Positions 48,101 through 51,100 of a DNA stretch of 64,000 nt are shown one piece after another. Source of the stretch: Hormiphora californensis (taxonomy: Eukaryota; Animalia; Ctenophora). Both the position numbers and the translations under genes were made by a program. How positions within the stretch are numbered: position 1 is the stretch's first letter; every line of letters begins with the position of its first letter. The stretch is from NCBI GenBank assembly GCA_020137815.1, contig CM035352.1, positions 8,494,001 through 8,558,000 of the forward strand, given 5' to 3'. Under the pieces are notes generated by a model. It had not been told where the DNA came from and did not search any database. It saw nothing but the letters and a program-made list of their open reading frames with translations.

Positions 48101-51100
48101 TTGTGAGAGATTAGAATGTGATGTCTTTCCGTTAGGTCTATATGTTCTTGTCTTGTCAGGTTTTGTCTTAGTAGTCATACCTCTTCCCCCCGCAAACCTC
48201 CCAATACTTTGTCGATACTGCTCAGAGCTAATCAGTTTGGTACTTCTTATTGGGACAGTTGTAACCACAGGTTCACGTCTCGCGGCAGGGATAGGAGATA
48301 TAAGGGTAAGGGAAAAAAGGGGGGTTGTTGTTGTGCTAAAAATGTTAAAAATGCTAAAAAAAGGGGGGGTGGGGGCTGAGACGAGTAAAAATCAGTAAGA
48401 CAATTTACCCGGTCCCCAATCTATCAATAAATTATTATTATCATAAATTCAGCTTGAAAACTATAAATTCAGCTAGAACATCAGCATAAAGCGGGAAAAC
48501 GTACAGCTACACACACTCAATCGATATCAGATCTGTGAGTAGGGCATAACCATACTTGTTCAAGTGAACACCATCCCTGCTGAACAAAGACTCATTAAAG
48601 AGGCGCTCCTCTGTTAGGAATTCACTCATCCAACATGCCACTCTACATCTCTTAACATGGGCCGCACAGTTAACAATTCTGTTATACATGTGGACGTTAC
48701 CAACAGTGAAGTCAAAAACAGGCCTCAGTGGTGGCACCTCCGCCAATACAACATCCACCGATTGCCCGTAGAACTTTCTCAGGTCCTCTACTAATACACA
48801 CAACTCTCTCTGTACTTTGTTCTTAGTTCGGGAGTCGTAGACGAATCCCCCGTGAAACCGAACATCGTTCGTCCCAAACGCTATGATGACCTTCTCGAAC
48901 CTCTCATCAGGGTGGTCAAGGCGTCGCTGCTTCAGCATCTCCATCACTGTTGTCCCTTTCCAGTTTGGATGAGGTTTCACCACTCTAGCTCCGGAGACCG
49001 ACAAATTTACCAGACCCGGGACTCCTTTGACCCATTTAGACATACTGGTCCCCAGAAGAAGAGTACTAGCAATCCTGGGGTTCTGGTTACGAACTGGAAA
49101 GAAAGGGGCTGGGGTCGACTGGTCAGTTGAGGGAGATTGATTCCCATCACCTGCGGGGGTCGAAGAGGGCGGTTGAGAGACCTGGGTACCCGCTGAGATC
49201 TTGGCTGGGGATACCGTGGGGACAACTCGCCGTCTGAAGGAGAGTGCATACCTTACCTCCGTCAACCCAGCGTGTGTTGCCCTGTGCTTTAGCTTTTCCT
49301 GGCAGCCAGGACGCATTATGTAGGCAGAACCCGATCTAGGAGTGAGTTCGAGATCTGGAGCAGACCTTCCTCTCTTCTCATATGCTCTAAAGTCAACTTT
49401 ACCAGGGCCACCGAGGCTAACAACTATGATTGGTGCAGTATCATCTAGGCACGCTTCAAAGTCTGTATGGTAGCCGATCCCCTGACCGTCACGGTACTTT
49501 GTTACTAGACATGAGTTCAGCTCAGGTCCATTAGTACCGAAACCATCCTTCCGGTTGATTGTTTCAAGTAGAGCTGCAATTACTGGATACTCATCAAGTT
49601 CTGTTGGCACTAACGAAGTAGACCCCCATCCATAACCGAGTCCAGTTTTTGTCAACCACAGATTCTTCTCTCTCTGATTCTCCACTTCCTTGAGAAGGAG
49701 CTCAACATTATCATCATCAATAAAACCCTCAACCTCTGTAACAAAATCGTTAGCGTTCAGCTCCTCTTCTTTACTGTTCTTCCTTCTCTCAGCTCGCTCT
49801 CTGTCCAAATACTCGACTAGCCTATCCAATTGTGGGAGAGATAGATCCCTCATCGATTCTATAACCCTCTTGTCGAGATCACACATGGTGGGTAAAATTG
49901 TTGGTAGTAAGGAGGAAATTAAGGACGTAGAGGGGGTAGTATGTGTGTGTGGCTTGTTAGTTGTCATTATTGATGTACTAGTAGGATTTTTTGGTGTATA
50001 CTCGCGAGATCCACTAGGCAAGGCTCTCTTAATGGCATCCATTAACTTACTCTCTGCTCTCTATATGTCTATAGGGAACTACTAATAGAAAACACTGTCA
50101 CTATATAAAACACTTGTCTCCCGCGTCCCAAATACACGTTAGCCACAAGGAAGTTGTGCCCATACAGTTGTTTCAATTGCCGTATATCGGAAACATTCAG
50201 CTAATTGCTTTAACAATAAATGAACCATGCCTCCCCCATTTGATAGATATAGCTCTAGCAATAGGTCGACAGGGGTGGTGTTGTTGTTTCTACTTCAAGT
50301 AACTAGCTGACACTAGCTGGTACTTACCATGGTTACAATTATACTATACTCACCATGCAGGTTACCATGGTAACCATGGTAACTATCTGCCAACAATACT
50401 TAGTAAGTACTACTCACCATGGTTTGGTATTTCCCTGACTCCCGTGAGTTCCGTCTCCAGGCTTTGCAACACGGTAAAGTTCATTATCTTTGGAAGATCT
50501 GCCGTTACGTTGGGAGTGTGCTTGTTTATCTCGTGAAATACCTCTGAAAAATGGTGATATGAGTATTAATATGAGTAGCAACAATCAACATGAGTAGCAA
50601 TGGGGTAGCAATATTGTTCTTCTTCTAGAATCTAAAGAGTGCCTGGTGGTGATGAGTAGAAACATTGTGTGTTGATTTGAAGATACAATCGCTCCGTCGA
50701 TTGAGCACTATCGGTTGATTTGAAGATTTGATGAGTTATTGTAGATTATTGGACGTCAATATCTGTGAATAATGTCTACTGAAACTTGTAACCTAGAGAG
50801 AAGGAAATTCGACAATATTGAAGCGATGCCGATAGGCTTGCGCTTATAATTCCTGCATTATAACCTATGAATATTGCCCATATTTGTAGGTCATGATATG
50901 GCTTATCATTGATATGTGGTGTATGAGTAAACTGTGTAGCCATGAACGCTATGATGACCGACGTTTTCGTGAATTGCATTGCTCTTGTGTTGTTTGATAT
51001 CCTAGTCCAACCCGCGTCTCTATCATTCTATTGATATCTAGTGTAATTGATATTGTTATTGGCAGTGTCATCAATATTGTAATCATACTACTTACTAAGC

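Follow-up and report, generated by a model that had tools for sequence, protein, structure and literature searches.

The first open reading frame of a LINE retrotransposon in the ctenophore Hormiphora californensis encodes a protein (ORF1p) in which an N-terminal helix is followed by an ALKBH2/3-like dioxygenase and an SGNH esterase. The element lies on the minus strand of contig CM035352.1, in a stretch of 64,000 nucleotides that was analysed as a whole (the window). Its ORF1 belongs to a family of AlkB-bearing relatives, all named members of which are ctenophore. The dioxygenase likely serves to clear methyl groups of the m1A/m3C type, which block reverse transcription, from the RNA of the element itself or from its freshly made cDNA; we give this reading a probability of about 0.5.

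The insertion and its open reading frames

The copy in the window is a young, 5'-truncated, polymorphic LINE insertion (Table 1). Contigs from two runs (X1, X5) represent an empty-site allele, connecting position 42629 straight to 49940, and in two organisms (X5, X8) contigs depart from the window sequence at position 49943, sharing the same sequence upstream of it. At the empty-site joint a single base is compatible with both sides, 4 nt of microhomology lie at the 5' end, and no target-site duplication beyond 1 base was found at the insertion junctions. The empty site, the 5' truncation, the simple-repeat 3' tail and the absence of LTRs are hallmarks of a LINE. The palindromic element in the LINE 3' UTR is foreign to the LINE, and the joint from 42787 to 44491 is seen in contigs. 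The hairpin behind ORF2 folds with a z-score of -4.4, matched by 0 of 200 shuffles. Contig depth increases toward the 3' end of the element (in X1 from about 110 over ORF1 to 174 and then 230, with 31 for the empty-site contig), depth not being equal to copy number. Contigs of depth 2-5 lie over the element in a single metatranscriptome (X15), which is no proof of transcription.

Table 1. Features of the LINE insertion, in window coordinates (protein positions refer to the 459-aa ORF1p)
Feature	Position	Strand	Details
Whole LINE insertion	42630..49943	-	~5.6 kb when the nested 1.7-kb element is not counted; truncated inside the 5' UTR
5' UTR remnant	49887..49943	-	4 nt at 49940-49943 match element and flank alike (microhomology)
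ORF1, 459 aa	48507..49886	-	open frame; homologues begin at the same Met
N-terminal helices (aa 2-12, 17-37)	49776..49886	-	AF2 model; predicted antiparallel dimerisation element
AlkB-type Fe(II)/2OG dioxygenase (aa 45-222)	49221..49754	-	H140, D142, H201, R212, R218; pocket Y85-x-W87, E144
Pro/Ser-rich linker	49071..49220	-	low model confidence; length 27-159 aa over the family
SGNH esterase (aa 273-459)	48510..49070	-	S281, G299, N340, D438, H441
Inter-ORF spacer, 115 nt	48392..48506	-	
ORF2, 1188 codons, first ATG 48178	44825..48391	-	hydrophobic N-terminal part
ORF2 NPGP motif	47753..47764	-	
ORF2 APE domain	~47030..47719	-	
ORF2 RT domain	~45542..46180	-	
Hairpin right behind the ORF2 stop	44696..44820	-	18-bp perfect arms
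Nested non-autonomous palindromic DNA element	42792..44490	.	~770-bp inverted arms, 99% alike; 4-bp duplication TCTA
3' tail, short tandem repeats	42630..42645	-	AATCA-like, ~3 units

The first-pass annotation, made from the sequence of the window, had described an ORF1 of 511 aa with an AlkB-type demethylase fused to an SGNH esterase. The frame 48507-50042 (minus strand) is indeed open over 511 codons counted from its first ATG; however, the 5' end of the element falls at 49940-49943, so that this frame opens in host flank. A 511-aa ORF1 with a Thr/Pro-rich N-terminus is excluded by the empty-site joint, the shared ends at 49943 and an in-frame stop in the upstream sequence common to X5 and X8, and the same three observations place codons 1-33 in the host flank and codons 34-52 in the 5' UTR. 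The true ORF1p begins at methionine 53 of the longer frame (49886) and is 459 aa long. The same methionine is the start of a 91%-identical homologue (P0001) and of two cluster members.

Both domain assignments hold: Pfam finds 2OG-FeII_Oxy_2 (E 2e-13, 51.4 bits against a cut-off of 31.2) and Lipase_GDSL_2 (E 6.8e-8, 33.6 bits against a cut-off of 32.9), and the residues H192-x-D194, H253, R264-x5-R270, GTS333, GTND and DGVH (numbered from the longer frame) stand where they had been placed. ORF2 is intact, as annotated, and carries APE followed by RT (PF03372, E 7.7e-11; PF00078, E 2.5e-31). The open frame of ORF2 starts 115 nt after the ORF1 stop and its first ATG lies 328 nt after that stop, instead of the gap of about 240 nt stated previously. 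NPGP precedes APE in 22 of 27 ORF2 relatives, and this motif, the esterase ORF1 and the tandem tail are compatible with the CR1 group (CR1, L2, Crack, Daphne and others), without placing the element within it.

The ORF1 family and its AlkB clade

A protein search recovered 558 protein clusters related to ORF1p at E<=1e-3, and the AlkB domain was detected by Pfam (E<=1e-3) in 82 of the 95 members of alignment A2. The genomic surroundings were readable for only 4 of the many family members. In three further records, from separate parts of the family tree, the AlkB-SGNH protein is joined to APE or APE-RT, as expected of a LINE ORF1: L001 has an ORF1 (27-30% identical) directly followed by an APE-RT ORF2 (39% identical), a Mnemiopsis gene model (P0090) has the order AlkB-SGNH-APE, and P0228 has the order AlkB-AlkB-SGNH-APE-RT. 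Two AlkB domains are present in some family members. A host gene that happens to lie beside a LINE is excluded by these three records and by the position of ORF1 inside the stretch missing from the empty-site allele. A search for longer proteins found no ORF1-ORF2 fusion among 7986 candidates, a weak negative given that the fused P0228 emerged by another route. Scans with alignment A1 gave 16 pattern matches in viral contigs and 17 in prokaryote genomes, none of them confirmed as relatives; the metagenome scan confirmed 1 of 117.

The catalytic residues are under strong conservation. Among homologues of at least 400 aa, the two histidines, the aspartate and the first arginine are present in 104 of 104 and the second arginine in 103 of 104; all five Fe/2OG residues are intact in 94 of the 95 members of alignment A2, where two domains share a median of 32% identity. 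The comparison with organism B has 23 synonymous changes among the 40 listed differences and a dN/dS of 0.22-0.28 (binomial p <= 2.2e-4), and the value of about 0.25 in this one comparison indicates purifying selection. Ligand conservation and dN/dS together exclude neutral decay. With an AlkB profile match, an ORF that is neither single-copy nor unlinked to ORF2, and catalytic residues that have not decayed, the first-pass reading stands in so far as the AlkB-SGNH frame is the ORF1 of a LINE; counter-defence and repair are both candidate roles. Between close relatives 157 of 178 AlkB positions are identical versus 179 of 187 in the esterase, so the AlkB domain diverges faster.

The LINE AlkB domains form one clade on a long separate branch (SH-aLRT 100) and are an old and deeply diversified group. 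AU tests rejected neither a grouping with RNA viruses (p 0.63) nor one with Synechococcus (p 0.53). Both constrained trees scored better than the quick free tree, which shows that the free search was not optimal; the reference domains were picked by HxDDE-type patterns, with eukaryotic ALKBH2/3 left out.

Subtype, rebuilt lid and candidate substrates

By profile and fold comparison the AlkB domain resembles ALKBH2/3 (m1A/m3C type) more than ALKBH5. The family profile matches ALKBH3 (E 2e-22), ALKBH2 (E 2e-20) and E. coli AlkB (E 5e-6), and neither ALKBH5 nor FTO is among the 60 profile matches listed. The closest folds are ALKBH3 (Z 20.7, rmsd 2.2, 172 aligned) and ALKBH2 (Z 19.7), ahead of FTO (Z 18.3), ALKBH6 (Z 17.9) and ALKBH5 (Z 17.1, rmsd 4.3). 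The base pocket is kept in alignment A2, with Y85 in 88 of 95, W/F/Y87 in 89 of 95 and E144 in 95 of 95; their ALKBH2 equivalents Y122, F124 and E175 touch m1A/m3C (PMC10377887, PMC3985658). Plant-virus AlkBs repair m1A/m3C with a preference for RNA (PMC2553587).

This pocket bears on another reading, in which the domain would be an eraser of m6A (or DNA 6mA) that counters host methylation silencing the transcript, convergent with an ALKBH5-like protein of an orchid Gypsy element. That LTR element provides a functional precedent (PMC9289625), ALKBH5 likewise has a short first lid hairpin (PMC3985658), and the ALKBH5 and FTO folds are still good matches; the changed lid and the AlkB duplication in some members would also fit an arms race. 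However, the HxDxE motif and the Y-x-W pocket are of the ALKBH2/3 type, ALKBH5 and FTO are missing from the listed matches, and positive selection was not seen in the single comparison made, which together leave an m6A eraser unlikely.

The lid over the pocket is rebuilt. The arginine equivalent to ALKBH2 R110 and ALKBH3 R131 is found in 59 of 59 reference domains versus 0 of 47 scorable LINE domains of the tree set, and in 2 of the 91 scored LINE domains of alignment A2; the register of this position was checked before scoring. Since replacing it in ALKBH2 (R110A) abolishes activity (PMC10377887), its absence weakens a simple transfer of ALKBH2 function. The first lid segment has a median of 18 residues versus 23 in bacteria, and 10 in the subclade of the window copy.

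One possible meaning of these changes, which we regard as unlikely, is a switch to a small or terminal substrate (free methylated nucleotides, an m7G cap or a 3'-terminal base) or to a methylated protein residue, by which the domain would clean the nucleotide pool of the RT or alter the particle. The loss of the arginine, the short hairpin and a partner helix modelled at the pocket entrance are in keeping with it, as is the activity of ALKBH6, a good fold match, on m7GMP and m1AMP (PMC12494543). Against it, the base-stacking and base-reading residues of the chain-acting ALKBH2/3 are retained, and the median net charge of the domain is +3 in LINE domains and bacterial relatives alike; a case for a non-nucleic substrate built on low charge was abandoned after this bacterial control.

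Action on chromosomal target-site DNA (3mC/1mA repair or removal of an epigenetic mark, aiding integration or expression of the new copy) is the least likely of the options that the first-pass annotation had offered, which also included stripping RT-blocking or silencing marks from the RNA. ALKBH2-dsDNA complexes head the Foldseek matches of the AlkB domain, and DNA methylation exists in ctenophores (PMC8141815); but the shortened part is the hairpin that in ALKBH2 bears the DNA-intercalating F102 finger (PMC10377887), and we consider such action improbable. The fold might, finally, be a mere (methyl-)RNA binding module in place of the RRM missing from esterase-type ORF1, with incidental catalysis: PMC3905857 describes esterase ORF1 proteins without a structured RNA-binding domain and leaves their mode of RNA binding open. 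Given that no columns of the family are better conserved than the metal and 2OG ligands, this is very hard to credit.

ORF1p is predicted to dimerise via antiparallel helices, each lying against the active-site rim of the other subunit. The model of the antiparallel pair (aa 17-35) scores 0.46 versus 0.00 for the best control, just above a mark of 0.42. Of the solved one-chain pairs 20 of 30 pass this mark, as does 1 of 23 single chains; in animals 7 of 16 pass it. Contact agreement between runs is at least 66% and pLDDT at least 83. The modelled partner helix contacts residues 86-89, 141-146 and 196-198. As the geometry is that of the antiparallel coiled coil of ZfL2-1 (PMC3905857), the pass may mirror the likeness to that protein. 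It is conceivable, though doubtful, that ctenophore LINEs own an AlkB subfamily in which the partner helix substitutes for the lost capture hairpin, so that the enzyme would be active only in the assembled particle and would erase host-written methyl marks on bases by which LINE RNA is blocked or silenced.

For the preferred reading, the clearing of RT-blocking methyl groups, we propose the following course. ORF1p would attach in cis to its own transcript, as LINE ORF1 proteins do, and the esterase may provide the membrane attachment of the particle, a role proposed for ZfL2-1. Tethering on the RNA would free the dioxygenase from the need for the hairpin and arginine by which free ALKBH2/3 capture their substrate, and oxidative demethylation would then reduce RT stalling and 5' truncation. 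Either chemical damage or a host enzyme could be the source of the marks.

Precedents and significance

The closest known ORF1 architecture is that of ZfL2-1 (CR1-1_DR), a zebrafish type IV ORF1p (PDB 4C1B; profile match E 2.9e-16). Both have an N-terminal helix, here predicted to form the antiparallel dimer, a variable linker and, upstream of an APE-RT ORF2, a C-terminal SGNH esterase with S-G-N-D-H. In the ctenophore family, by contrast, AlkB (sometimes two copies) stands between helix and esterase, and the transposon-specific His191, four ahead of the block-III Asn, is absent: position 336, mapped by offset, is A in the window, and its four commonest residues in the family are S, C, N and A. 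The esterase residues S, G, N and H are jointly kept in 86 of 95 members of alignment A2. This His is present in 87 members, and in 65 of these an Asp stands three residues ahead of it.

Known precedents for an AlkB on RNA-based mobile elements are the orchid Gypsy ALKBH5 and the plant-virus AlkBs; none was found for LINEs. The ALKBH5-like ORF of Phalaenopsis (paALKBH5-like; PMC9289625) is also a retrotransposon-encoded AlkB-family demethylase, with m6A activity in vitro; there it is a separate ORF2 of an LTR element, recently captured from host ALKBH5 homologues, whereas here a domain of ALKBH2/3 type is fused into the ORF1p of a LINE. The RNA-virus AlkBs, in replicase polyproteins of plant and invertebrate viruses (PMC2553587), likewise place an ALKBH2/3-like domain on a mobile RNA element and are good BFVD fold matches. 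Unlike the LINE domains they have the lid arginine (15 of 15), and they score at most 51 bits with the LINE profile versus up to 108 for bacterial homologues. The best profile and fold matches, human ALKBH2/ALKBH3 and bacterial ALKBH2/3-like proteins, share with the LINE domains HxDxE, the Y-x-aromatic lid motif, Q-x4-H and R-x5-R, and differ in the R110/R131 equivalent and longer first hairpin that the LINE domains lack and in the Trp/Phe that these have at the stacking position. AlkB occurs 0 times in the available parts of PMC13343379, PMC4120745, PMC3905857 and PMC6431247, and those of PMC4738411 contain no LINE-encoded AlkB; none was found in the literature searched. Prior annotation may exist in Repbase or Dfam, in subscription journals, or in supplements such as Table S1 of PMC3905857.

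The fusion brings an enzyme-bearing ORF1 architecture into LINE biology. A 2013 survey found a structured RNA-binding domain in no Repbase esterase ORF1, and the AlkB domain contradicts the generalisation that esterase ORF1 proteins have no structured nucleic-acid-binding domain (PMC3905857). Alongside plant RNA viruses and the orchid Gypsy, the LINE would make a third class of RNA-based mobile element that carries an AlkB, a pattern suggesting that such elements repeatedly face base methylation of their template. Whether RNA damage or a host RNA mark limits retrotransposition and causes 5' truncation is a standing question that a single point mutant makes testable. AlkB enzymes serve to remove RT blocks in RNA sequencing, and the family comprises hundreds of naturally occurring AlkBs whose lid is rebuilt and whose substrate ranges could be new. 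If the partner helix does complete an enzyme directed at host-written marks, this would point to a defence by RNA modification in an early-branching lineage of animals, and to an enzyme that counters it.

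Structure and boundaries of the element

The genomic context of the element was drawn from public contigs and protein collections. The first of two minus-strand frames, 511 codons counted from its first ATG, has Pfam matches above the cut-off to 2OG-FeII_Oxy_2 (E 2e-13) as well as Lipase_GDSL_2 (E 6.8e-8), and contains all the AlkB and SGNH residues listed in the first-pass annotation. The second frame, of 1188 codons, lies 115 nt beyond the first and matches APE (E 7.7e-11) and RT (E 2.5e-31).

Alignment of contigs from four runs to positions 41000-54000 of the window revealed a haplotype without the LINE, seen as a joint 42629->49940 in contigs of runs X1 and X5; another joint, 42787->44491, represents the LINE without the 1.7-kb palindromic element nested in its 3' UTR. 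No clear target-site duplication was found at the LINE junctions. In a finer alignment, the contigs from organism A (X5) and organism B (X8) depart from the window at 49943 with near-identical upstream sequence. The break that truncates the window copy therefore lies inside the 5' UTR and shows 4 nt of microhomology, a feature reported for truncated L1 copies (PMC4245944). Within the 30 bases visible, this upstream sequence contains an in-frame stop and no ATG, so ORF1 starts at 49886 and encodes 459 aa, the numbering used below, in which residues stand 52 lower than at first pass; the frame annotated at first pass is open as described, but its 511-aa start is not the true one. The same start methionine is found in the proteins P0001 (91% identical), P0156 and P0158.

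An NPGP motif with a preceding hydrophobic stretch occurs in 22 of 27 ORF2 relatives (P0186-P0212). The motif is a degenerate 2A-like site, differing from active 2A sequences in its missing DxE (PMC3708506). The hydrophobic N-terminal 150-200 aa of ORF2 are possibly membrane-associated.

Features of the window, with coordinates
Feature	Position	Strand	Description
First frame, containing ORF1	48507-50042	-	AlkB-SGNH
Second frame (ORF2)	44825-48391	-	APE-RT
NPGP	47753-47764		just ahead of the ORF2 APE domain, after a hydrophobic stretch
Hairpin	44696-44820		stable (z -4.4), immediately 3' of the ORF2 stop; candidate ORF2p recognition element
Palindromic element	42792-44490		high-copy, non-autonomous, nested in the LINE 3' UTR, missing from other LINE copies; arms ~770 bp, 99% alike; ends CAC...GTG; 4-bp duplication TCTA; ends and duplication presumably similar to Chapaev-type transposons
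LINE 3' end	42630-42645		short AATCA-type tandem tail
Insert	51082-51684		~600 bp, very high-copy, missing from other haplotypes (joint in X1, X5)
Second LINE ORF2	61191-62342	-	3' part, unrelated element; RT 31-34% identical to the studied ORF2
LINE match	34333-34398		resembles the studied LINE's 3' end over 73 nt (81%); may be a remnant from a related copy
Ankyrin-repeat frame	30944-33457	+	837 codons, intronless
Hydrophobic frame	57482-58423	+	313 codons, no Pfam match, hydrophobic segments and NPxxY motif; presumably resembles the C-terminal region of rhodopsin-type GPCRs
Formyl-transferase-like frame	15602-16315	-	237 codons, weak match (E 0.005), under the cut-off

Linkage, extent and conservation of the ORF1 family

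The proposal that the AlkB-SGNH frame is a LINE ORF1 was borne out by three further records in which it is linked to ORF2. Contig L001 carries an ORF1 27-30% identical to that of the window, followed by an APE-RT ORF2 (39% identical), and two single protein records read from ORF1 into ORF2: P0090 as AlkB-SGNH-APE and P0228 as AlkB-AlkB-SGNH-APE-RT. The deepest LINE split of the AlkB domain tree, which is weakly supported, separates L001 from P0078, the representative of the P0228 cluster. Tandem AlkB pairs were seen in P0073, P0074, P0078, P0085, P0109, P0111 and P0228, and two domains were confirmed in the six proteins tested; the first domains of tandem proteins form a branch of their own together with one single-domain protein.

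A word-indexed search with ORF1 recovered eight close relatives (identity 38-91%), and phmmer against 50%-identity representatives gave 558 matches at E<=1e-3, the best 150 of which were examined as listed. We aligned 95 sequences: the window ORF1, that of L001 and 93 matches 400-620 aa long. At E<=1e-3, the AlkB family is recognised in 82 of them and GDSL_2 in 83. Pairwise identities of the two domains co-vary (4465 pairs, medians 32% for AlkB and 30% for SGNH, Spearman 0.68), which is consistent with joint inheritance. Organism names were available for 5 of 30 clusters checked (Pleurobrachia bachei three times, Mnemiopsis leidyi twice), and ESM Atlas clusters with both families (1-3 members each) belong to Ctenophora wherever the phylum is known; the host is therefore most likely a ctenophore near Pleurobrachia.

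H140, D142, H201 and R212 are unchanged in all 104 sequences of at least 400 aa and R218 in 103; the set was picked by similarity and is thus biased towards conserved motifs, yet columns beside the motifs vary freely. All five Fe/2OG residues occur together in 94/95 aligned sequences, and the esterase S, G, N and H in 86/95. That the AlkB fold serves for binding only is very improbable. The best-supported 40 of 68 ORF1 differences (codons 110-261 of the 511-codon numbering) comprise 23 synonymous and 17 non-synonymous changes, giving dN/dS of 0.22-0.28 at transition weights 1-4 (p <= 2.2e-4). Between close relatives, the esterase is the more constrained of the two domains (179/187 residues identical, against 157/178 in AlkB).

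An ALKBH2/3-like domain with a rebuilt lid

The family profile matches ALKBH3 (E 2e-22) and ALKBH2 (2e-20), E. coli AlkB far more weakly (5e-6), and the esterase ORF1 of the zebrafish LINE ZfL2-1 (2.9e-16). An AF2 model of ORF1p (mean pLDDT 87.9, linker disordered) has ALKBH2 as its top Foldseek match, and VIA-align ranks ALKBH3 (Z 20.7, rmsd 2.2) and ALKBH2 (19.7) ahead of FTO (18.3), ALKBH6 (17.9), ALKBH5 (17.1, rmsd 4.3) and AlkB (17.1). ALKBH5 and FTO are absent among the 60 profile matches listed; a counter-defence directed at m6A or 6mA is unlikely. Equivalents of the ALKBH2 pocket residues Y122, F124 and E175, which touch m1A/m3C (PMC10377887, PMC3985658), are kept in 88/95, 89/95 and 95/95 sequences. 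Small or terminal substrates, by analogy with ALKBH6 (PMC12494543), would be a rather unlikely target. A quick tree was built from 108 domains (49 LINE, 15 small-virus, 19 other viral, and 25 of the 117 bacterial ones scored; eukaryotic ALKBH2/3 not included); in it, a long branch (SH-aLRT 100) sets the LINE domains apart from all others.

The position four residues ahead of the lid Trp aligns with the Arg of PRKQATYG in ALKBH2 and of PRLTAWYG in ALKBH3, the latter presumably R131. This Arg is present in 59/59 references, none chosen for it, against 0/47 scorable LINE domains and 2/91 sequences of the ORF1 alignment. The first-hairpin segment is also shorter in LINE domains (median 18 residues against 23 in bacterial ones; 10 in the window subclade). 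Since R110A, which we take to affect the Arg of PRKQATYG, abolishes ALKBH2 activity (PMC10377887), LINE AlkB domains without it must capture substrate differently.

Modelled as two copies, aa 1-222 reached a score of 0.46, compared with 0.00 in the best of three controls, with contacts agreeing to at least 66% between runs and pLDDT of at least 83; the 0.42 mark is reached by 20/30 solved pairs, 1/23 single chains and 7/16 animal pairs. In this model, helices 17-35 are paired antiparallel, resembling the ZfL2-1 coiled coil (PMC3905857), and the model may therefore pass the mark through this likeness. Residues 18-19 of one copy contact its partner at 141, 169 and 196-198; the interface also includes residues 86-89 and 143-146 of the lid. 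This placement suggests that the partner helix could substitute for the lost lid hairpin.

Proposed role and precedent

We assign a probability of about one half to a mechanism in which an ORF1p dimer would coat its own RNA, the esterase would bind membranes, following the proposal for ZfL2-1, and the tethered dioxygenase would clear m1A/m3C-type blocks before reverse transcription; beyond architecture, linkage and selection, we infer every step. Plant-virus AlkBs provide the functional analogue (PMC2553587). That the enzyme works on target DNA is quite improbable.

Esterase ORF1s are already known, as is AlkB in a retrotransposon, an orchid Gypsy element with an ALKBH5-like protein (PMC9289625). 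According to a 2013 Repbase survey, a structured RNA-binding domain was lacking from every esterase ORF1 (PMC3905857). Searches of the open-access literature, surveys included, found no LINE-borne AlkB; a prior annotation may exist at database level, in Repbase or Dfam, or in subscription papers or supplements. The AlkB-bearing LINE ORF1 is real, conserved and directly testable.
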